From assembly GCF_048403405.1 (NCBI RefSeq), contig NZ_CP183129.1: DNA of 64,000 nt; one strand, 5' to 3'. The stretch is from Escherichia coli (GTDB lineage: Bacteria > Pseudomonadota > Gammaproteobacteria > Enterobacterales > Enterobacteriaceae). The position numbers and the translations under genes were made by a program. Below are positions 1 to 42,511 of this stretch, in pieces (the stretch's first letter is position 1; each line of letters opens with the position of its first letter). Below the pieces are notes generated by a model. The model had not been told where the DNA came from. It saw nothing but the letters and a program-made list of their open reading frames with translations, and searched no databases.

Positions 1-3000
1 TTGCCCGTTCAGTGTCACCGTAATAGTGGTGCCCGCTGGCTGATTGCTGGTGCCGGAAATTTGCAGATCCGCGCCTTTTTCGGTGGCGTTAATTATGTCA
101 TCGGTAGCGATGGTGTTAATGCCAATGGTTGGCGCGGTAAGGTTAACGGTGACCGTGTGCGTTTCGCTGTCGCTATTACCTGCCGCATCGGTAACGGTCG
201 CCATCACGGTTTGCGGGCCGCTACCCAGCGCCGTGACATCCGCCGCCGGAACGCCGACGCTCCAGTTGCCGGAGGCATCCAGCGTCGTGGTGTAGGTTTT
301 ACTGTTTAGCGTGACGGTGACGACATCCCCCGCTTCTCCGCCAGTGCTGGAACCGGAAATCACCAGCGCCTGCCCGTGTTCGGCGGCGTTAATAATATCG
401 TCGCCCGCAATGGTGTTGATGGTAAGTACCGGAACGGTGAGATCCACCGCCAGATTATGCGTGGTGCTCGCCGGGTTGCCCGCTTTGTCATTGACCGTGG
501 CGGTCAGGGTGTGGCTGCCATCGGTCAATGCCTCAAGATCTGCCGCCGGAATATTAATACTCCAGCTACCGTCGGCCTGTACCGTTGCCTGATACGTCTG
601 CACGGTCGGGCTATTGAGCGTTATCGTAACAATCTGCCCTGCCTCGGCAGTGGTGCTGCCGCTCACCGTCACACCCGCATCGGCTTCGCTGGCGTTGACG
701 ATATTGTCGCTGGCAACGGTATTGATAATGATGGTCGGGGCACTGCTATCGACGCTGTAGTTATGCACCGCCGAGGCGCTATTGCCATTAATATTGCTGA
801 CGCTGGCCTGCGTGGAGGCGCTGCCATCGGTTAATAACGCTAAATCGGCAGCGGGAACGGTGGCACTCCAGCTACCATCGCTCGCCACGCTGGCAGTGTA
901 ATTTTTCCCGCCAAAGGTGACGGTGACCGTTTGCCCGGCTTCTACATTTGTGGTGGTGCCGGAAAGGGTTAAATCAGCGCCTTTTTCTGCGCCGTTAATC
1001 ACATCGTCCGTGGCGATAGTGTTGATGGTAATAGCCGCCGGAGTGAGATCCACCGTTACCGGATGCGTAATGCTTATCGGATTTCCGGCGCTACTTTCCC
1101 CGGACACGGCAATATTAATCGTCCCCGCAGGCCAGGCGCTAACCTGCGCCGCCGTGACGCCCACGCTCCAGCTACCATCGGCCTGCACCGCAGTGGTGTA
1201 TTCCACATTATTAATTGTGACGGTAAGCGGCGTGCCTTCAGCCAGCCCCGAGCTGCTGCCGCTGACCACCAGCGCCTGCCCGTGCTCGATGATATTGACC
1301 ACATCATCGCCTGCCACCGTATCGATCCGCAGACCGGGCAGATTGGCGTCGATGGTGATATCCCGCGTGCCGCTGCCGGTGTTGCCGTTTTGATTGGTGA
1401 CCGAGGCGCTCACCGTTAAATCGCCATTACCCAGCGCCTGAATATCTGCCGCCGGAACGCTCACGCTCCAGGTGAGATTGCTGCCCACCGTCGCCGTATA
1501 AGTATTACCGCCCAACGTAATAGTTACCGTGTCGCCATCTTCCGCTCCAGTAACCTGCCCGCTGATGGTTTGCGCGACGCCCGCTTCGGCGGCGTTAATA
1601 ATATCGTCGGTTGCCACCGGGTTAATGGTCACGCCGGGCAGCGCGCTGTCAACCAGCACGTTATGGCTGGCGGTGTTGCTGTTGCCGATACTGCTGGTTA
1701 CCGCCGCCGTTACCGTGTAGTTGGCCTGGCCCAGTGCGGTTACCGCCGATGCCGGAACGGTGACGCTCCAGTTGCCGGAGGCGTCGGTCGTGGTGGTGTA
1801 ATTTTGCCCGTTCAGCGTCACGGTGATGGCGGTATTAACAGGCTGATCGCTGGTGCCGGTAATCTGGACATCGGTTCCTTTTTCGCTGGCGTTAATCACA
1901 TCATCGCCCGCAATGCTGTTAATGCCGATAAGGGGCGCTGCGGTATTGACCGTGACGGTCAATGACTGGCTGCCGCTGTTTCCTGCGCGGTCGGTTACCG
2001 AGACGCTGACAGGATAACTGCCGTCCACCAGTCCGCTGACAACGGAAGCCGGAACACCCAGACTCCAGTTGCCGGAACCATCCACCACCGTGGTGTAATC
2101 GGAATTATTTAACGTAACGGTGACAATATCGCCCGCCTGCGCGCCAGTAACCGTGCCACTGATGATTTGCGCCTGGGTGTGTTCCGGCGTGTTGATGACG
2201 TTATCGGTCGCCACCGGATTAATGGTCACCACCGGAGGCGTGGCATCGACCAGCGCCACCCGTGAAACGCTGGTCGGGTTACCGGCGACATCGTTCACGC
2301 TGGCGGTGACCGTGGCGTTGCCGTCAGCCAGTGCGTCAACATTGGCGGCGGGAACGGTCACGCTCCAGGTGCCGTCGGACTGCACGATGCCCTGATAGGT
2401 TTGCCCATTCAACGTAACGGTCACCGTCTGCCCCGGCTGAGCGTCGGTGGTGCCGGTGATGGGCAAATCCTGCCCGCTTTCGGCGGCGTTAATGATGTTA
2501 TCAGCGGTCAGTGGATCGATGCTCAACGCCGGGGCCTGGCTGTCGACGGTAATGGTGCGGGAGGTGTTGCCGGTATTGCCGCTGAGATCCGTCACAGAAG
2601 CGGTAATCGCCACCGCGCCGTCAGGCAGATTTCCCATCGCGGCGGCAGGTACCGTCAGACTCCAGGAGCCATCAGCCTGCACGGTAGTGGTAAAACTCTG
2701 TCCAGCCAGGGTTACTGTGACGGTTTGTCCTGTCTCGGCCTGTTGAGTGCTACCGGTAAGGGTCAGTGGCGCACCTTTTTCTGCGCCACTGATAATGTCA
2801 TCGCCGGAGACGGTGTTAATGGTGATCAACGGAGAAACACCGACCAGCGTGATTGCTCGAGACGCCGCGCCAGTATTTCCTGCAGCATCTGTCACGGTGA
2901 CGAAAATCGTATTGGCTCCGCGATCCAGCGTGCGGGTTACCGCCGGGTCCAGCGCCACATTCCAGCTGCCATCTGCCAGCACGATGCCCGTCAGGACATG

Positions 3001-3740
3001 AGTGCCCAATTTCACCGTTACCGTATCGCCAGGAGAAGCACCGCTGACTTGTCCGGAGATGATCTGCGCGACGGCCTGCTCGGCATTATTAAGAATATCG
3101 TCGCCCGCCACGGTGTTAACGCTGACCACGGGTGCTGAGGTGTCTACCGTGAAATTCGCGCTGTGGCTGGTGGTGTTTCCTGCCCGATCGCTGACACTGG
3201 CATTGACAGCATAATTACCCTCCGCCAGTGCCTGGACTTCCGTGGCAGGCAGCGTCACTTGCCAGGTTCCGTCGCTACCGACGGTTGCTGTATGGCTTTT
3301 CCCGTTGACGGTCAGTGTTACGGTTTGCCCCGCTTCTGCATTCGACGTGCCGCTCAGTACCAGCGCGACGTTATGTTCCGCAGCACTGATGATGTTGTCC
3401 TGAGCGATGGTGTTGATGGCAAGCGTTGGCGGTTGGGTATCGACCGTTAGCAGCTGCGCGCCGGTGACCGTATTGCCTGTGGCGTCTTTCCCACTGACCA
3501 GCACCGCCTGATTCCCTTCGCCTAACGCCTGTGCATCGGCGGTCGGCACCTGCACGCTCCAGGCACCGTTAGCGCCTACGCTGGTGGTGTAGGTTTTGCC
3601 GTTTAGCGTAACGGTGAGTTCTGTTCCCTGCGCCAGATGGCTACTGGTGCCAGAAAGCGTAAACCCGGCGGCCTGTTCGCTGGCGTTAATAATGTTATCG
3701 CCTGCGGTGGTGGCAACCTGCACGCTGGCCTGACTATTGT
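1..3740 (-). repeat. Tandem array of ~300-bp coding repeats (Ig-like domains) inside the adhesin gene; repeats diverged (~40-60% aa identity by eye)
   Basis: Recurring ~100-aa motif in the hand translation; array start approximate. Confidence 0.7.
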
Positions 3741-4548
3741 CGATGGTTAACGTTATCGAACCGGCGTCAGTGATGGTACTGCCGACAATTTGCACCACTG
3801 ACCAGGTATGTTCACCTGCACTTTGCGTGGGTAACGAGACACTCCAGTGACCGTTGTTGTCTACCTGAGTACTGGCAATAGTATTGCCGTTACTGTCTTT
3901 AATCTGAATAGTCGCCCCCGCCTGCCCGCTGCCGCTAAAGGTTGGCGTGGTGTCATCGGTGATGTCATTGGTGGCGAGAATGCCGCGCTGATCGCCCTGA
4001 TTATCGGTAACTAAGAATGATGGTGTGGCGTTGCCAGGCTCAGCGGGTGGCGTAGGGTTATTAATCACTTCCGTTTTCGAGTCGCCATCACCACCGCTTG
4101 CCAGCAGTGCACCAAGCGCACCACCACCTACCGCCGCCCCCGCCAGCCAACCCCACGGGAAGGCGCTGGTCTGAGCAACGGTATCAAGAAATGGCGCAAT
4201 GCTTTCAATCGCGGTGGTCTGGGCAGTCAGTTCTACGGGGGCTAATCCACCCGCAGCAGTATCGGCAAAGGTGACGTGGGTGAGCTGTTGTCCATCGGCA
4301 AACACCAGTTCCGATTGTTCAGCGGTATTCGCCGCTTGCAGGAAATAACCGTTGCAACGGATCACCGTGCCGTCCTGCATATAGATCAGCAGGTCATTTC
4401 CTTCACGGACGTAACGCGAAACGGCAGAGGCCTGAGCATGAACCTGCACCACGGAAGGCTCATAAATAACAACCGTGACGTCGCCAGGATTAATCAGCGT
4501 TTGTTTGACGGATGTTTTACGCGAAATAACATCAATAATCAGGCTCAT
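1..4548 (-). CDS. Giant surface adhesin / type I secretion substrate, N-terminal ~1515 codons (3' end beyond window start); BapA-like N-terminal domain followed by tandem Ig-like domains
   Basis: Minus-strand frame open from ATG at 4546-4548 (AGGAAT RBS 6 nt upstream) to position 1 with no stop. Hand translation: MSLIIDVISRKTSVKQTLINPGDVTVVIYEP..., then 13 or more ~100-aa repeats (TINTIAGDDIINAAE..ISGTS..GQTVTVTLNG.TYTATV.ADGSWSV.VPAAD..AL.DG..TV.ASVTD.AGN). Plus-strand track ORFs here are antisense artefacts. Confidence 0.85.
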   Translation of the reverse strand, partial: MSLIIDVISRKTSVKQTLINPGDVTVVIYEPSVVQVHAQASAVSRYVREGNDLLIYMQDGTVIRCNGYFLQAANTAEQSELVFADGQQLTHVTFADTAAGGLAPVELTAQTTAIESIAPFLDTVAQTSAFPWGWLAGAAVGGGALGALLASGGDGDSKTEVINNPTPPAEPGNATPSFLVTDNQGDQRGILATNDITDDTTPTFSGSGQAGATIQIKDSNGNTIASTQVDNNGHWSVSLPTQSAGEHTWSVVQIVGSTITDAGSITLTIDNSQASVQVATTAGDNIINASEQAAGFTLSGTSSHLAQGTELTVTLNGKTYTTSVGANGAWSVQVPTADAQALGEGNQAVLVSGKDATGNTVTGAQLLTVDTQPPTLAINTIAQDNIISAAEHNVALVLSGTSNAEAGQTVTLTVNGKSHTATVGSDGTWQVTLPATEVQALAEGNYAVNASVSDRAGNTTSHSANFTVDTSAPVVSVNTVAGDDILNNAEQAVAQIISGQVSGASPGDTVTVKLGTHVLTGIVLADGSWNVALDPAVTRTLDRGANTIFVTVTDAAGNTGAASRAITLVGVSPLITINTVSGDDIISGAEKGAPLTLTGSTQQAETGQTVTVTLAGQSFTTTVQADGSWSLTVPAAAMGNLPDGAVAITASVTDLSGNTGNTSRTITVDSQAPALSIDPLTADNIINAAESGQDLPITGTTDAQPGQTVTVTLNGQTYQGIVQSDGTWSVTVPAANVDALADGNATVTASVNDVAGNPTSVSRVALVDATPPVVTINPVATDNVINTPEHTQAQIISGTVTGAQAGDIVTVTLNNSDYTTVVDGSGNWSLGVPASVVSGLVDGSYPVSVSVTDRAGNSGSQSLTVTVNTAAPLIGINSIAGDDVINASEKGTDVQITGTSDQPVNTAITVTLNGQNYTTTTDASGNWSVTVPASAVTALGQANYTVTAAVTSSIGNSNTASHNVLVDSALPGVTINPVATDDIINAAEAGVAQTISGQVTGAEDGDTVTITLGGNTYTATVGSNLTWSVSVPAADIQALGNGDLTVSASVTNQNGNTGSGTRDITIDANLPGLRIDTVAGDDVVNIIEHGQALVVSGSSSGLAEGTPLTVTINNVEYTTAVQADGSWSVGVTAAQVSAWPAGTINIAVSGESSAGNPISITHPVTVDLTPAAITINTIATDDVINGAEKGADLTLSGTTTNVEAGQTVTVTFGGKNYTASVASDGSWSATVPAADLALLTDGSASTQASVSNINGNSASAVHNYSVDSSAPTIIINTVASDNIVNASEADAGVTVSGSTTAEAGQIVTITLNSPTVQTYQATVQADGSWSINIPAADLEALTDGSHTLTATVNDKAGNPASTTHNLAVDLTVPVLTINTIAGDDIINAAEHGQALVISGSSTGGEAGDVVTVTLNSKTYTTTLDASGNWSVGVPAADVTALGSGPQTVMATVTDAAGNSDSETHTVTVNLTAPTIGINTIATDDIINATEKGADLQISGTSNQPAGTTITVTLNGQ

Positions 4549-4656
4549 AATGGCATTCCTGATAAATGGCGCATATCCTTAGCGAGTCCATTTATCTAAA
4601 TAAGACAAAGGTAATCACTTAACAACGAGGCATACCTGATATTAATAATGGCAGGA

Positions 4657-6012
4657 TTATTTCAAGTCGGGTAAGTCGTTGTATAAGCCCTGTTTAATTC
4701 CCGCTAATGGAATAAGGTTATTCACCGCAGCGGCATAATTTACGGCGGCGACCCAGCCATCATAATTGGCATTTATTTCAGCCGATTGCGCCTGAAAGAC
4801 ATCTTGCTCGACGGTTAATAGATCATTCAGACTGCGTTTGCCCAATTTATATTCATTTTGGTACACATCTCGCGTTTTGTGCGCACTTTCGGATTGTGCT
4901 AAACCGGCTTCTTCGCGACCCCGTGCGCCTGTCCAGTTGGCATATGCCACAGACGCTCGTTGCAGCACATCCAGTTTTGCCTGTTCGACCTGCGAGGCAG
5001 AGATTTTTTGTTGCCCTTCGGCCTGTTGCACCTGGGCAGAAACCGCGCCGCCCTGATACAGCGGCGCGTTAACGTTCAGTTGTAGCTGATCATCCCAATA
5101 CGAGCGGTCGCTGGTCTGGTAGCGCGTTTTGCCCCCCTGAATACTCAGCGTTGGCCAGTATTGCGCTTTCGTTTTTTCCACGCCGTACTGTGCTGACTGG
5201 CGTAAGTTTTCTGCCGCCAGCACCAGCGGGATGGACTGGTAATCAATATTTTTCAGCGATACCGGCTGCTCGGCTAATTCAGCAGGTGGCGCGGCTATCG
5301 CCTCCGGCTGTACGCCAGTGAGCACCGCCAGTTGCGCTTTGGCGCTTGCCATCTGCGCCTGATATTGCTCCAGCGTTGAGCGCATTCCGGCAATGCGCGT
5401 CTGGGCCTGTAATTCATCCGACGACGAGTTCAGGCCAGCGTTAGCACGCAATGCTGCCATGTTGTAGACGTTTTCCAGCGAGTGAATATTGCGTTGAGCC
5501 GCATAGCACAAAGCCTGATAACGACTGACTTCCATATAGGCAGTTGCCGTTTTCTCTGCAACATCGGTTAATGTTGCCATCAATTTAAAGCGGTAGCTGT
5601 CACGGGCGGCAGTTTGCAGTTTGATATCGTTGTTAGTTTTACCAAAGTCATACACCAGCTGTGTCAGGGTTATGCCATACGAAACGTTGTTATCAAGCCT
5701 GCCACTGGAGTCCGTTTGTCGGGACGGTCCCGCATTGCCGGTTAATCCAACGTGCGGATACCAGGCACTTTTGGCTTCATCAATTTGCGCTTCGCCAATA
5801 CCTATCTGCGCCGCCTGTTGAGTGACGTCGGGATTTCGCGCAAAGGCGCGTAATATACTTTCCTGTAAAGATAATTGGGCAACTGGCGTTACCGCTGGGG
5901 CATTCGCCCATTGTGGCAGCGGTGCAGCAATTGCAGCTTCTCCCATCACCATAAAACTTATTAAAAAAATAAACCCATTATTTTTACGGCTTTTAAACTG
6001 GAATCGCGCCAT
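4657..6012 (-). CDS. TolC-family outer-membrane efflux/secretion protein, 451 aa, with N-terminal signal peptide; likely the outer-membrane component for the adjacent adhesin
   Basis: Complete ORF; basic n-region then hydrophobic FIFLISFMVMG and AIA-A signal-peptidase-like site; TolC/OprM-like composition; 108 bp upstream of the adhesin start on the same strand. Confidence 0.75.
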   Translation of the reverse strand: MARFQFKSRKNNGFIFLISFMVMGEAAIAAPLPQWANAPAVTPVAQLSLQESILRAFARNPDVTQQAAQIGIGEAQIDEAKSAWYPHVGLTGNAGPSRQTDSSGRLDNNVSYGITLTQLVYDFGKTNNDIKLQTAARDSYRFKLMATLTDVAEKTATAYMEVSRYQALCYAAQRNIHSLENVYNMAALRANAGLNSSSDELQAQTRIAGMRSTLEQYQAQMASAKAQLAVLTGVQPEAIAAPPAELAEQPVSLKNIDYQSIPLVLAAENLRQSAQYGVEKTKAQYWPTLSIQGGKTRYQTSDRSYWDDQLQLNVNAPLYQGGAVSAQVQQAEGQQKISASQVEQAKLDVLQRASVAYANWTGARGREEAGLAQSESAHKTRDVYQNEYKLGKRSLNDLLTVEQDVFQAQSAEINANYDGWVAAVNYAAAVNNLIPLAGIKQGLYNDLPDLK

Positions 6013-6300
6013 AGATAAGTCACTTCCTTCCAGGTCATTATTTTAACTGGTTTTTATAACCAGTCTCATTTTATTAAGAAGGGTAATAACTTGTGCATCT
6101 CTTTTGTCGATCATTGATATTGGCAAAGAAATGCAGCTAAAAAGCTTATACGTTATTTATTTAGAATACACTACGACTTTTAGATTACCATCATACACAT
6201 TAAGAATAATCCACGGTAATAAGTGATTAGCATCACAGATTTATCGCGTATATATCATTTTTTTGTGACTTATTTATTAAAGGAATAAGAAAGGTAATTT

Positions 6301-6338
6301 GAATTAAAGACAAAGGCGCAGTACAGGCTGTACTGCGC
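6301..6338 (-). terminator. Intrinsic terminator downstream of ybaT
   Basis: Inverted repeat GCGCAGTACAG/CTGTACTGCGC at 6316-6338, 12 nt past the ybaT stop, followed on the minus strand by a U-rich tract. Confidence 0.6.
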
Positions 6339-6349
6339 ACAGAGAGGTG

Positions 6350-7642
6350 TTATACGGTTTTATTGCGCTTCATGACCATTGCCACAATAAGGCTGAGTAA
6401 GATTGCACCAATAATCCATATCAACGCACGGCTGCCCTGGGACCACAGGCTGTAGATAAAGCCAACGATCACCAACAACATCACCAACGTACCAACGATA
6501 AGAATCGGCAACGAGGCGTGAATATCATGACGCAGGCGGATCGCCACCACAAACACCGCCAGATAGCAGATCAAAAAGGTGGCGCTGGCAACGCTGGCGA
6601 GTGAGCCTAAATTCAGCGCCGCCGTCATCAGCATAATCAGCACCACGACAATGATGTTGCCCCAGGTACTCTGCCGCCACAGGGATTTATTCATTAGCTT
6701 CGGCAGTTCGCGTTCGCTGCCCATGTTGTCCATGATGTTAAACACGGCGAACAGGTTCGCGTTGATGGCTGAAGCCGTCGCCAGTAAAGCGCCGATGACG
6801 ACGATCACATAACCCACATGCCCGAGCAGCGGAGAAGCTGCCTGCGCTACGGCGGTATCGGCATATTTTTCTAACTCTAATGCCGATACATCGCTAAGCA
6901 AAACCAGCGCCAGCGAGATATAAAGCAACGTGGTAACGCCAATCGCCACCAGAAACGCCCGTGGCATAATGACCTGCGGATCTTTCACTTTATCCGCCGC
7001 GTTCGCCATCATGCCAAAGCCCGCATAGGCAAGGAAGGTTATCCCGATACAGGAGAAGAACGCACCGGAGCTGGGGGGCGCAGAGACGGAAATATGCGCC
7101 GGTTGCAGCGACCAGACACCTGCAATGATCAGCAATAACAGGATCATCATTTTAATGCCGACGAGGATCACTTCCAGCCGCCCTACCGCATGGTTGCTTA
7201 AGGAGTTGAAAAGCGTCATCACCGCAATGATCCCCAACGCGTAGAGCAATATAAGGTGCTCCTCCTGACTGCCTTCATGCAAAAACTGCACGGCATAAGC
7301 GCCAAAAGCACGGGCGACCATGGCGATGCTCACCGCCAGCGTCAACAGGTACAATAACGAGAGTGCCAGCGAAAAGACGCCGTTGCCTAATCCGCGACGA
7401 AAGAAGTCGATAATACCGCCATTGCTGGGATAGCTCGCCCCTAGGCGCGCATAGGCATAACCGGAAAACATCGCCACAATACCGCCAAAAGCAAAGGCGA
7501 CCCAGGTCGAGGCTTCCATTAGCAACGCAGCCTGCCCCAGCAGCGCGAAGATCCCCGCCCCCACCATTGCCCCAATACCGATGGAAACGACGTTCCATAG
7601 ACCGAGGGGTTTGTTATCGTTATTACCTTCCGTGTTCATCAT
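6350..7642 (-). CDS. ybaT: APC-family amino acid transporter YbaT (430 aa)
   Basis: Complete ORF; polytopic membrane protein sequence; 2 nt downstream of glsA. Confidence 0.9.
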   Translation of the reverse strand: MMNTEGNNDNKPLGLWNVVSIGIGAMVGAGIFALLGQAALLMEASTWVAFAFGGIVAMFSGYAYARLGASYPSNGGIIDFFRRGLGNGVFSLALSLLYLLTLAVSIAMVARAFGAYAVQFLHEGSQEEHLILLYALGIIAVMTLFNSLSNHAVGRLEVILVGIKMMILLLLIIAGVWSLQPAHISVSAPPSSGAFFSCIGITFLAYAGFGMMANAADKVKDPQVIMPRAFLVAIGVTTLLYISLALVLLSDVSALELEKYADTAVAQAASPLLGHVGYVIVVIGALLATASAINANLFAVFNIMDNMGSERELPKLMNKSLWRQSTWGNIIVVVLIMLMTAALNLGSLASVASATFLICYLAVFVVAIRLRHDIHASLPILIVGTLVMLLVIVGFIYSLWSQGSRALIWIIGAILLSLIVAMVMKRNKTV

Positions 7643-7644
7643 GA

Positions 7645-8577
7645 TCAGCCCTTAAACACGTTATAGCCGAGTTGCTTAGCGACCGATGCCACCATTTTTT
7701 GACCGCGAACACTGTTACCTTCTTCGTCCAGCGGTGGTGAGAACGCGGCAATTCCCATCACGCCAGGGACGACCGCCAGAATACCGCCACCTACACCGCT
7801 TTTGCCCGGTAAACCAACGCGATACGCCCAGTCACCGGAGCGACCATACAGCCCTTCCATCATCATTTCAGCCAGAATGTACGGCACGTTGTCGGCCTGA
7901 AGAACGCGTTTATGCGTCAGCGGATTCACACCCCCCGCCGCCAGCGTCGCGCCAAGCGTTGCCAGTTCAACAGTATTGATGAGCGTGGAGCACTGACGGG
8001 TGTACACGTCACAGGCTTCCATTGCATCACAATAGAGATATCCGGCGGAGTACAGCAGCCAGGCAATGGCCCGGTTATGGAAGTTGGTTGTTTGTTCCGA
8101 CTGGTTTACTTCGTCAGAGAGCGCTACCTGCTCACCAGCCAGTTGTTGTTGGATATGTAAAATTCGCTGCCAGCGTTGTTCGGCATTTTCAGCGTTAATC
8201 AGGCTGGTGGTGGCAATAGCGCCAGCATTTACCAGTGGCGACAGCGGTTTACCGCCATGCAACTCTAAGGCGATAACTGAGTTAAAGGGCAATCCGGTCG
8301 GGTCAGCGCCAATTTTGTCCTGTACCGCCTGCGGGCCGACATCTTCTAACGCAAGGGCTAACGTACAGACTTTCGAGATGGATTCCAGCGCAAAGCGGTA
8401 ATCACTATCACCCGCGCGATAGATGTTGCCATCGCAGGTCACAATAGCCACTGCTGCCAGTTGACCAGGTACATTCGCCAGAAAGGGAATGTAGTCGGCA
8501 TTTTGTCCGCCGTTAAGTGAGTGAAATTGGGTGTAAGCCTGATCCACTGCCTGCTGTAATTTGTTTGCATCTAACAT
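7645..8577 (-). CDS. glsA: Glutaminase 1 (310 aa)
   Basis: Complete ORF; sequence recognisable as YbaS/GlsA glutaminase; forms glsA-ybaT operon. Confidence 0.92.
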   Translation of the reverse strand: MLDANKLQQAVDQAYTQFHSLNGGQNADYIPFLANVPGQLAAVAIVTCDGNIYRAGDSDYRFALESISKVCTLALALEDVGPQAVQDKIGADPTGLPFNSVIALELHGGKPLSPLVNAGAIATTSLINAENAEQRWQRILHIQQQLAGEQVALSDEVNQSEQTTNFHNRAIAWLLYSAGYLYCDAMEACDVYTRQCSTLINTVELATLGATLAAGGVNPLTHKRVLQADNVPYILAEMMMEGLYGRSGDWAYRVGLPGKSGVGGGILAVVPGVMGIAAFSPPLDEEGNSVRGQKMVASVAKQLGYNVFKG

Positions 8578-8768
8578 CTTTTGTTAACTCCTTTTTATAG
8601 ATGCGGGAGGTAATTCCTCACCCCGGTGCCGATTTTCAGGCATCCTGATTTAACTTAGCACCCGCAACTTAACTACAGGAAAACAAAGAGATAAATGTCT
8701 AATCCTGATGCAAATCGAGCCGATTTTTTAATCTTTACGGACTTTTACCCGCCTGGTTTATTAATTTC

Positions 8769-8799
8769 TTGACCTTCCCCTTGCTGGAAGGTTTAACCT
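8769..8799 (+). promoter_or_regulatory. copA promoter with CueR (MerR-type) operator: -35 TTGACC, 19-bp spacer containing dyad CCTTCC-N7-GGAAGG
   Basis: TTGACCTTCCCCTTGCTGGAAGGTTTAACCT read directly 41-71 nt upstream of the copA ATG. Confidence 0.8.
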
Positions 8800-8839
8800 T
8801 TATCACAGCCAGTCAAAACTGTCTTAAAAGGAGTGTTTT

Positions 8840-9051
8840 ATGTCACAAACTATCGACCTGACCCTGGACGGCCTGTCCTGCGGTCACTGCGTTAAACGCG
8901 TGAAAGAAAGTCTCGAACAGCGCCCGGATGTTGAGCAGGCGGATGTGTCTGTCACTGAAGCGCACGTTACCGGGACTGCCAGTGCAGAACAGCTGATCGA
9001 AACCATCAAACAAGCGGGTTATGACGCATCTGTAAGCCACCCAAAGGCTAA
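8840..9051 (+). CDS. copA: CopA(Z) copper chaperone, 70 aa, produced by programmed -1 ribosomal frameshift within copA
   Basis: Slippery heptamer C-CCA-AAG at 9040-9046 (codons 68-69); the -1 frame reads CCC AAA GGC TAA, ending ...SHPKG. Confidence 0.75.
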
Positions 9052-40954: not shown

Positions 40955-42511
40955 ATGCTGGTGAGAACACGACATCTGGTCGGCCTTATTTCGGGAGTAC
41001 TGATTCTTTCAGTATTGCTGCCTGTCGGCTTAAGCATCTGGCTGGCCCATCAGCAGGTAGAAACATCATTTATTGAAGAGCTGAATACCTATTCCTCCCG
41101 CGTCGCTATTCGGGCCAATAAGGTGGCGATACAAGGGAAAGATGCACTGCAAGAGCTGGAAAGATGGCAAGGCGCTGCCTGTAGCGAAGCCCATCTCATG
41201 GAAATGCGTCGGATATCTTACAGTTATCGCTATATTCAGGAAGTGGTTTATATCGATAACAACGTTCCCCAGTGTTCGTCTCTGGAGCATGAAAGCCCGC
41301 CCGATACCTTCCCCGAGCCAGGTAAAATTTCGAAAGATGGTTATCGTGTCTGGTTAACATCGCATAACGATTTAGGCATTATCCGTTACATGGTTGCCAT
41401 GGGAACGGCACATTATGTCGTCATGATCGACCCCGCTTCCTTTATTGATGTCATTCCCTATAGCTCATGGCAAATTGATGCCGCCATTATTGGCAATGCC
41501 CATAACGTTGTGATAACCAGCAGCGATGAAATTGCTCAGGGAATTATTACCAGACTACAAAAAACACCCGGTGAGCATATCGAAAATAATGGAATCATTT
41601 ACGATATCCTGCCCTTCCCGGAAATGAATATTTCGATCATCACCTGGGCTTCAACGAAAATGTTGCAGAAAGGCTGGCATCGGCAAGTCTTTATTTGGTT
41701 ACCGCTCGGGTTGGTGATTGGCCTGCTGGCAGCGATGTTTGTGCTGCGTATTTTGCGCCGTATCCAGTCACCGCATCATCGGCTGCAGGATGCTATCGAA
41801 AATCGTGATATTTGCGTGCACTATCAGCCGATTGTCTCCTTAGCCAATGGCAAAATTGTCGGTGCTGAGGCACTGTCGCGCTGGCCGCAGACAGACGGTA
41901 GTTGGTTGTCACCAGATAGTTTTATTCCGCTGGCACAGCAAACGGGCCTTTCTGAGCCATTGACGCTACTGATTATAAGAAGCGTCTTTGAAGATATGGG
42001 CGACTGGCTGCGTCAGCATCCGCAGCAGCATATTTCGATCAATCTTGAATCCACCGTGCTCACCTCGGAAAAAATCCCGCAATTGCTGCGTGAAATGATC
42101 AATCACTATCAGGTTAATCCCAGACAGATCGCGCTTGAACTCACTGAACGCGAGTTTGCTGATCCGAAAACCAGCGCCCCGATAATTTCTCGCTACCGGG
42201 AGGCGGGCCATGAAATTTATCTTGATGATTTTGGTACGGGGTATTCAAGTTTAAGTTATTTACAGGATCTGGATGTCGACATTCTGAAGATAGATAAATC
42301 TTTCGTTGATGCGCTGGAATATAAAAATGTCACGCCGCATATCATCGAAATGGCAAAAACACTGAAACTGAAAATGGTAGCGGAGGGAATCGAAACCAGT
42401 AAACAAGAAGAGTGGTTACGCCAGCATGGCGTGCACTACGGTCAGGGCTGGCTCTACAGCAAGGCATTACCGAAAGAAGATTTCTTACGCTGGGCCGAGC
42501 AACATTTGTGA
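40955..42511 (+). CDS. pdeB: c-di-GMP phosphodiesterase PdeB (YlaB), CSS sensor plus EAL domain
   Basis: Complete ORF; EAL-domain motifs in the C-terminal half; start uncertain by 2 codons (ATG 40955 versus GTG 40961). Confidence 0.88.
   Translation: MLVRTRHLVGLISGVLILSVLLPVGLSIWLAHQQVETSFIEELNTYSSRVAIRANKVAIQGKDALQELERWQGAACSEAHLMEMRRISYSYRYIQEVVYIDNNVPQCSSLEHESPPDTFPEPGKISKDGYRVWLTSHNDLGIIRYMVAMGTAHYVVMIDPASFIDVIPYSSWQIDAAIIGNAHNVVITSSDEIAQGIITRLQKTPGEHIENNGIIYDILPFPEMNISIITWASTKMLQKGWHRQVFIWLPLGLVIGLLAAMFVLRILRRIQSPHHRLQDAIENRDICVHYQPIVSLANGKIVGAEALSRWPQTDGSWLSPDSFIPLAQQTGLSEPLTLLIIRSVFEDMGDWLRQHPQQHISINLESTVLTSEKIPQLLREMINHYQVNPRQIALELTEREFADPKTSAPIISRYREAGHEIYLDDFGTGYSSLSYLQDLDVDILKIDKSFVDALEYKNVTPHIIEMAKTLKLKMVAEGIETSKQEEWLRQHGVHYGQGWLYSKALPKEDFLRWAEQHL

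Follow-up and report, generated by a model that had tools for sequence, protein, structure and literature searches.

The TAAG Tetrapeptide in the N-Terminal BapA_N Domain of the Escherichia coli Adhesin SiiEA and Its Relation to LapG-Type Release

Described Systems Related to SiiEA

The giant adhesin SiiEA, whose gene begins in a 64,000-nucleotide stretch of Escherichia coli DNA (contig NZ_CP183129.1; the whole stretch is called the window), can be compared with several described type I secreted adhesins. In the preliminary description of this DNA, a Thr-Ala-Ala-Gly (TAAG) tetrapeptide at residues 97–100 had been taken for the di-alanine site of a LapG-type periplasmic protease, and release of the adhesin under the control of a LapD-like receptor of cyclic di-GMP (c-di-GMP) had been proposed. 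Release of SiiEA by LapG, LapD and c-di-GMP is not supported, as judged by five independent lines concerning family, conservation, context, chance and partners. The tetrapeptide is most likely lineage-specific and incidental, lying in a variable surface loop rich in Ala, Gly and Thr inside the N-terminal domain, and not a conserved protease site. Public annotation already covered the gene, the family of its N-terminal domain and the island that carries it (siiEA in the Prokaryotic Genome Annotation Pipeline, PGAP; NF047714; PF22783).

LapA of Pseudomonas fluorescens, which is served by LapG and LapD, and the Kluyvera version of this system resemble SiiEA in that a giant type I secreted adhesin carries a folded N-terminal domain and a Gly-rich linker. 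They further share with it an ABC transporter of the LssB/LapB class, a dedicated TolC-like pore and a [T/A/P]AA[G/V] tetrapeptide. SiiEA differs from LapA in the family of its N-terminal domain, in having no targeting helix or Asp-Pro (DP) pair, in a motif that is unconserved and placed inside the fold, and in that no lapG or lapD was found in E. coli by the searches given below. An optimal LapG substrate has been described as having a targeting helix, a conserved DP and [T/A/P]AAG in this order, in the stretch that separates the retention domain from the channel-spanning segment (PMC13090378), while the published regular expression for the LapG site is [T/A/P]AA[G/V] (bioRxiv 10.1101/198937).

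In PA1874 (BapA) of Pseudomonas aeruginosa, an N-terminal module and a poly-Gly linker likewise retain a type I adhesin, without release by LapG (bioRxiv 10.1101/198937). It differs in its degenerate AAAIG motif and in a host that encodes both LapG and LapD. When PA1874 was sought through the AAAIG motif among the SiiEA family matches, it was not present.

BapA of Salmonella enterica (bapABCD, Salmonella pathogenicity island 9, SPI-9) appears to resemble SiiEA in its BapA_N domain (PF22783), Gly-rich hydrophobic stretch, Ig-like repeats and four-gene cluster with TolC-like, ABC and HlyD genes. SiiEA belongs to a subfamily of its own, for which NCBIfam has the exception model NF047714; its length (6925 amino acids, aa) is far greater, and the outer membrane protein gene takes a different place in the gene order.

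Region I of the Marinomonas primoryensis adhesin MpIBP (PMC5550230) has the same three-part layout, comprising a Ca2+-independent RIN plug, a pore-spanning RIM segment and RIC Ig domains. No sequence or fold similarity was detected between the SiiEA N-terminus and the solved beta-sandwich of RIN. Moreover, RIM was reported to be without a transmembrane-like sequence (PMC5550230), whereas the BapA_N family carries a conserved hydrophobic Gly-rich stretch.

Among the Blp1, Blp2 and Bap proteins of Acinetobacter baumannii, likeness was seen as a partial match of the SiiEA N-terminus to the N-terminus of the NF040520 model Ig_like_BLP2. Many Acinetobacter BapA prefix-like proteins have a predicted fold in common with SiiEA, with 22–27% identity in the fold matches, and the putative transmembrane helix of Blp1 (residues 120–137; PMC6873735) parallels the Gly-rich stretch of SiiEA. 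The Acinetobacter proteins are distant in sequence and have other repeat and ligand regions.

The same locus and gene order, between ybaT and cueR, are found in O-island 28 of enterohemorrhagic E. coli (EHEC) O157:H7, where the genes are designated tolC28 (z0608), rtxA28/rtxB28 (z0609/z0615), hlyB28 (z0634) and hlyD28 (z0635) (PMC12758282). Across 176 compared N-terminal residues, the O157:H7 and window proteins differ at 2, and TAAG is present in both. However, the O157:H7 adhesin open reading frame (ORF) is interrupted, being divided into two ORFs in EDL933 and marked by PGAP with an internal stop, whereas the strain type of the window has one intact ORF of 6925 aa. In the 2025 study of this island, z0609 and z0615 were treated as two functional RTX proteins of O157:H7, and O-island 28 was activated by RstA and Ca2+ and was required for adherence and early colonisation; the study is silent on N-terminal retention or cleavage (PMC12758282).

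The TAAG Tetrapeptide and Its Candidate Protease

The N-terminus of the adhesin ORF (MSLIIDVISRKTSVKQTLINPGDVTVVIYEPSVVQVHAQASAVSRYVREGNDLLIYMQDGTVIRCNGYFL, beginning MSLIIDVISRK…) is read on the minus strand from an ATG start codon at 4546–4548. The following features of this part of the protein are relevant to the question of its release:

4153..4536, minus strand: BapA_N (BapA prefix-like) domain, residues 5–132 (Pfam PF22783, E 2.9e-19).
4249..4260, minus strand: T97-A98-A99-G100, in a variable 10-residue loop (residues 95–104) between beta-strands 89–94 and 105–107.
4090..4161, minus strand: Gly/Ala-rich hydrophobic stretch FPWGWLAGAAVGGGALGALLASGG, residues 130–153, which opens a linker of about 60 residues before the first Ig-like domain; the rest of this linker is rich in Gly and Asp.
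3739..4008, minus strand: first Ig-like extender, residues 181–270 (Pfam Big_13, 1.2e-09; Big_6, 1.6e-10), followed by tandem Ca2+-stabilised repeats.

The N-terminal translation, the TAAG at residues 97–100 (4260..4249) and the Gly-rich stretch at residues 130–153 had been given correctly in the preliminary description, with exact coordinates. The resemblance to a BapA-prefix domain noted there was also borne out by significant hidden Markov model (HMM) matches to PF22783 (E 2.9e-19), NF033677 biofilm_BapA_N (68.8–72 bits against a cutoff of 35) and NF047714. A match of 110 bits was obtained to NF033510 Ca_tandemer.

The structure of the N-terminus was predicted with AlphaFold2 (AF2) from an input alignment of 40 family N-termini. 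The mean predicted local distance difference test (pLDDT) value was 82.7, and 107 residues reached 90 or above. The model shows an all-beta fold comprising residues 3–114, with a short helix at 118–120, and from about residues 121–126 onwards the chain is predicted to be unstructured (pLDDT below 50 at residues 126–153). A Foldseek comparison with AFDB50 yielded 485 matches at E ≤ 0.001, of which the top 50 listed were all BapA prefix-like or adhesin-type proteins. The PDB sequence search with residues 1–158 returned chance matches to NDUFA11 alone (E ≥ 0.04).

TAAG fits the published LapG expression exactly. When the sequence was shuffled with its composition preserved, at least one [T/A/P]AA[G/V] appeared in 14% of trials for residues 1–158 and in 9–11% for residues 70/90–130. 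The match taken alone is not beyond chance.

To assess conservation, 1.84 billion representative proteins were searched exhaustively with HMMER, which gave 136 relatives, and 84 N-termini were aligned; this search replaced a word-indexed homologue search with the SiiEA N-terminus, which had returned E. coli and Shigella alleles only. Among these 84 sequences, the motif occurs at the homologous column only in E. coli and in one distant protein (Duffyella P0137). Its position corresponds to a variable loop between a conserved LTHVTF strand and a conserved ELT…I.SIEPFL element. In the closest relatives outside E. coli (Enterobacter cloacae, Apirhabdus, Pantoea and Citrobacter), the same loop reads ANADAAVG, ADTGEASG, ADAGDASG, PDAADTVG and TDAGEVAG, and a metagenomic variant with 92% identity has TEAG in place of TAAG. 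In the 40-sequence alignment, columns 99–102 are gapped in 11–14 sequences, and residues 97–100 are neither invariant nor near-invariant. The constancy of TAAG within E. coli was considered and rejected as evidence, because the N-termini of the alleles are at least 94% identical throughout.

Across the BapA_N family, conservation is far stronger in the hydrophobic segment PWGW-LAGAAxGGGAxGALLA than in the loop with TAAG. Within the 40-sequence alignment, G137 is conserved in 32 sequences, G142 in 31, and G143 and A147 in 30 each, and the Kyte-Doolittle profile (19-residue window) peaks at 1.4 over residues 135–153. LapA-type adhesins carry a hydrophilic poly-Gly linker in place of this hydrophobic Gly/Ala segment.

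The surroundings of the motif were compared with those in LapA-type proteins. In 44 LapA-type N-termini of 35–51% identity, D95, P96, A104, A105 and G106 are invariant. The motif is present in 69 of 77 LapA-type sequences, and in every one of the 69 it is preceded by DP at a distance of no more than 16 residues. In the BapA_N family, 5 of 84 sequences have the motif within residues 86–125, and DP precedes it in none. As judged from the sequence and the AF2 model, SiiEA has neither a targeting helix nor DP before TAAG; the residues AD follow strand 89–94 and lead into the motif. A control model of the Kluyvera LapA-type protein showed a beta-domain at 4–66, a helix at 81–91, DP at 95–96 and TAAG at 103–106 in a disordered region. 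The SiiEA motif is predicted by AF2, in a protein with no solved structure, to lie inside the fold and not between a retention domain and an unstructured segment, and it is followed by strands 105–107 and 109–114 with pLDDT of 93–97. The loop block itself has a pLDDT of 81, as compared with 93–97 in its flanks.

The suggestion that the N-terminus is a retention module was upheld in part. The layout of SiiEA, in which a folded N-terminal domain is followed by the Gly-rich linker of about 60 residues and then by Ig-like extenders, agrees with the retention architecture common to RTX adhesins, and a retention role is plausible from this layout. However, the LapA-type retention-module model NF033682 retention_LapA did not match the SiiEA N-terminus even at E ≤ 10; the LapA N-terminus, used as a control, scored 149.6 bits against a cutoff of 50.

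Annotation and tblastn revealed no LapG or LapD in the window, as had been stated in the preliminary description, and none in the island and its surroundings of about 110 kb. Of genes related to c-di-GMP, the window has just one, pdeB (ylaB; 40955–42511, plus strand), a core E. coli gene for a CSS-motif EAL phosphodiesterase. It is located about 36 kb from siiEA, and its product has only generic EAL similarity to LapD (20.8% identity), with no LapD_MoxY_N domain.

A complete Lap-type module was identified in an Enterobacteriaceae genome, on Kluyvera ascorbata contig DAJSVW010000032.1 (locus L009, 6662–10556). It comprises lapG (PF06035), lapD (PF16448 with GGDEF and EAL domains), an ORF of 113 aa and a LapA-type adhesin containing …IAAIQQAIADGQDPTQILEATAAGP…. 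When the DNA of this lapG-lapD pair was compared by blastn in its distant mode with 5,426 complete E. coli genomes and their plasmids, including strain 4621, zero matches were obtained. A neighbouring gene from the same Kluyvera contig, serving as a positive control, found homologues of about 69% identity in 5,089 of the 5,426 genomes. Named enterobacterial LapG entries at 73% identity or above came from Kluyvera, Leclercia, Phytobacter, Pseudocitrobacter, some Citrobacter and Enterobacter sp., and none from Escherichia. The Lap system therefore occurs near E. coli, as a module in Kluyvera and with LapG in Leclercia, Phytobacter, Pseudocitrobacter and certain Citrobacter, but by these searches not within E. 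coli. A LapG relative was carried by 152 of 72,556 plasmids, mostly from Vibrio and rhizobia, and Escherichia was not among the top genera. E. coli lysates have served as LapG-free negative controls in cleavage assays (PMC13090378).

The absence of a LapG-family protease from the genome had been named in the preliminary description as a finding that would contradict its proposal, and within the reach of the nucleotide search and the named entries no such protease was found.

Five loci with BapA_N adhesins were also examined, and neither Peptidase_C93 nor LapD_MoxY_N was present within 10 kb of the adhesin in any of them. In four of the five, an OEP gene and a gene for an HlyD-type adaptor stand beside the adhesin, and an ABC transporter gene was called in three; at the remaining locus (L004), no type I secretion genes were seen in the 16.6 kb covered. 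In Enterobacter cloacae CP035738.1, which carries the closest full-length relative (N-terminus 58% identical, no TAAG), two EAL-domain genes follow directly after the type I secretion genes (locus L005, 32733–36041), one encoding GerE and EAL domains (487 aa) and the other an EAL domain only (243 aa). They may hint at a connection of this adhesin family with c-di-GMP in which LapD has no part.

A regex match to the LapG di-alanine motif is no evidence of Lap regulation unless the helix and DP context, conservation in the family and a genome-encoded LapG/LapD pair all hold. Because none of these three was found for the E. coli protein, SiiEA is not to be listed as an adhesin released by c-di-GMP and LapG. 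Beyond correct annotation, the main use of the analysis is this negative result, and the question of retention and shedding concerns the whole BapA_N family.

Retention and Release of SiiEA

It is quite probable, in our judgement, that the SiiEA N-terminus with its BapA_N domain acts as an anchor independent of LapG, and that TAAG is no protease site. SiiEA is exported by its own type I system, consisting of the TolC-like outer membrane protein, the LssB-class ABC transporter and the HlyD adaptor. As type I substrates exit with the C-terminus first, the BapA_N domain would be the last part to reach the channel. The domain (residues ~3–120) may then stall there as a stopper or anchor, as its place in the layout suggests, and the linker of about 60 residues would thread the TolC-like duct and hold the adhesin at the cell surface. 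Retention and release would in this case proceed without the c-di-GMP switch of LapG and LapD, in an arrangement resembling the one demonstrated by experiment for PA1874 of P. aeruginosa. The stopper role is plausible because of the LssB/LapB-class transporter, the dedicated TolC-like gene and the layout. The LssB/LapB subgroup of transporters has been tied to adhesins with retention modules (Smith et al., bioRxiv 10.1101/198937), and the order of retention domain, flexible linker, Ig extenders, beta-roll and secretion signal has been described for RTX adhesins (bioRxiv 10.1101/2025.09.30.679566).

Several points weigh against the LapG-independent anchor. TAAG is present in every E. coli allele examined, down to 90% nucleotide identity. 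Cleavage in the loop would still detach most of the domain from the adhesin, and the geometry alone leaves a site possible. The absence of LapG was established by a nucleotide search, sensitive to about 65–70% identity, and from named entries, with no profile scan of full proteomes, so that a very divergent LapG could escape. Finally, no experiment on retention by BapA_N was found in the searchable literature.

The proposal that TAAG is a true LapG di-alanine site, with SiiEA released by a LapG-type protease and with a LapD-like c-di-GMP receptor, encoded at another place in the genome, holding that protease, has the exact regex match in its favour, together with a distance from the N-terminus approximately like that in LapA, the Gly-rich stretch that follows, the LssB/LapB-class transporter and the C-terminal target domain of the VCA0849 subclass. 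It is nevertheless extremely unlikely and already largely refuted, given that the blastn search of the complete E. coli genomes was negative with its control working, that the island and the surrounding 110 kb contain neither partner, that the motif is unconserved in the family, stands inside the predicted fold and has no helix or DP before it, that the LapA-type retention model went unmatched, and that E. coli lysates are in use as LapG-free controls. A different kind of processing has also to be weighed, in which the loop is a real site, gained in the E. coli lineage, for an unrelated periplasmic protease of E. coli or for LapG from neighbouring bacteria such as Kluyvera or Leclercia. The motif in all the E. 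coli alleles would agree with this, as would the lower confidence of the loop in the AF2 model, by which it is probably exposed, and LapG orthologues are known to cleave heterologous substrates (bioRxiv 10.1101/198937; PMC13090378). However, the constancy of four residues carries no information among N-termini as similar as these, a loop in the periplasm is out of reach for the protease of another cell, and the motif has a chance expectation of about 10–14%; we regard such processing as highly improbable.

Another possibility is that BapA_N is no periplasmic stopper and that SiiEA is secreted completely, then attaching again to the surface or matrix by way of its hydrophobic Gly-rich segment or by other contacts. 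Latasa et al. reportedly described Salmonella BapA in 2005 as loosely surface-associated. Full secretion would also be in line with the finding that the solved retention domain of MpIBP gave no structural match, and with the hydrophobic, transmembrane-like stretch, which in conservation comes next to the domain core and is similar to the putative transmembrane helix of A. baumannii Blp1 (PMC6873735). Yet the layout of SiiEA is exactly that of the RTX adhesins (bioRxiv 10.1101/2025.09.30.679566), and the locus provides a dedicated TolC-like gene and an ABC transporter from the subgroup tied to retention-module adhesins. In addition, the linker of about 60 residues would measure about 200 Å when extended, enough to span the TolC duct. 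The length of this duct is about 140 Å. On balance, complete secretion appears rather unlikely. There is also a slim chance that BapA_N adhesins, among them SiiEA, are held by a mechanism other than a LapA-type plug, with the strongly conserved hydrophobic Gly-rich segment as the anchor in the TolC-like pore or a membrane, and with the exposed TAAG loop of E. coli as a lineage-specific site of release by a protease that is not LapG.

The siiEA Gene and Its Secretion Island

The gene is E. coli siiEA, located in the ybaT-cueR island (EHEC O-island 28) and encoding a giant adhesin with Ig repeats. Translation of window positions 1–4548 gave a stop-free ORF of 1516 codons, running on the minus strand from 4548. 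The gene, its start signal and its upstream neighbour are as follows:

1..4548, minus strand: 5' part of siiEA, for a giant type I secreted adhesin, open at the left edge of the window (ORF translation, PGAP, NF047714).
4556..4560, minus strand: ribosome-binding site AGGAA, 7 nt upstream of the siiEA ATG, read from the sequence.
4657..6012, minus strand: dedicated TolC-family outer membrane protein gene, directly upstream of siiEA; z0608/tolC28 in EHEC (PGAP, PMC12758282, TIGR01844).

Residues 1–230 scored 509.8 bits with the model NF047714 adhesin_SiiEA (cutoff 425). The window is chromosomal E. coli DNA, and over the 6 kb compared its positions 3000–9000 were 100% identical to strain 4621 (NZ_CP103479.1), in which the full-length siiEA is one intact ORF of 20,778 nt (6925 aa), named by PGAP "siiEA: BapA-related adhesin SiiEA" (WP_114281893.1). 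At the C-terminus of this full-length protein, TIGR03661 recognised a type I secretion target domain of the VCA0849 subclass (37.5 bits; cutoff 17.6).

The gene order of the island, which is inserted between ybaT and cueR, is TolC-like outer membrane protein, siiEA, type I secretion ABC transporter and HlyD adaptor. The TolC-like protein scored 414.9 bits with TIGR01844 type_I_sec_TolC (cutoff 225), and the ABC permease/ATPase was assigned to TIGR03375 (LssB subfamily; LssB/LapB class) with 837 bits (cutoff 693). The HlyD adaptor matched TIGR01843. The siiEA N-terminal region was found in 958 of the 5,426 complete E. coli genomes.

The gene is highly repetitive, and PGAP flags it as a pseudogene in some strains, with an internal stop in O157:H7 17B6-2 and 28Eco12 and as frameshifted in MEW; these flags may reflect true interruptions or errors of assembly. 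Next to the island of strain 4621, just past cueR, stand two hypothetical genes and a gene of 1017 nt for a short autotransporter adhesin of the YadA family (locus L002, 21295–22987, outside the window).

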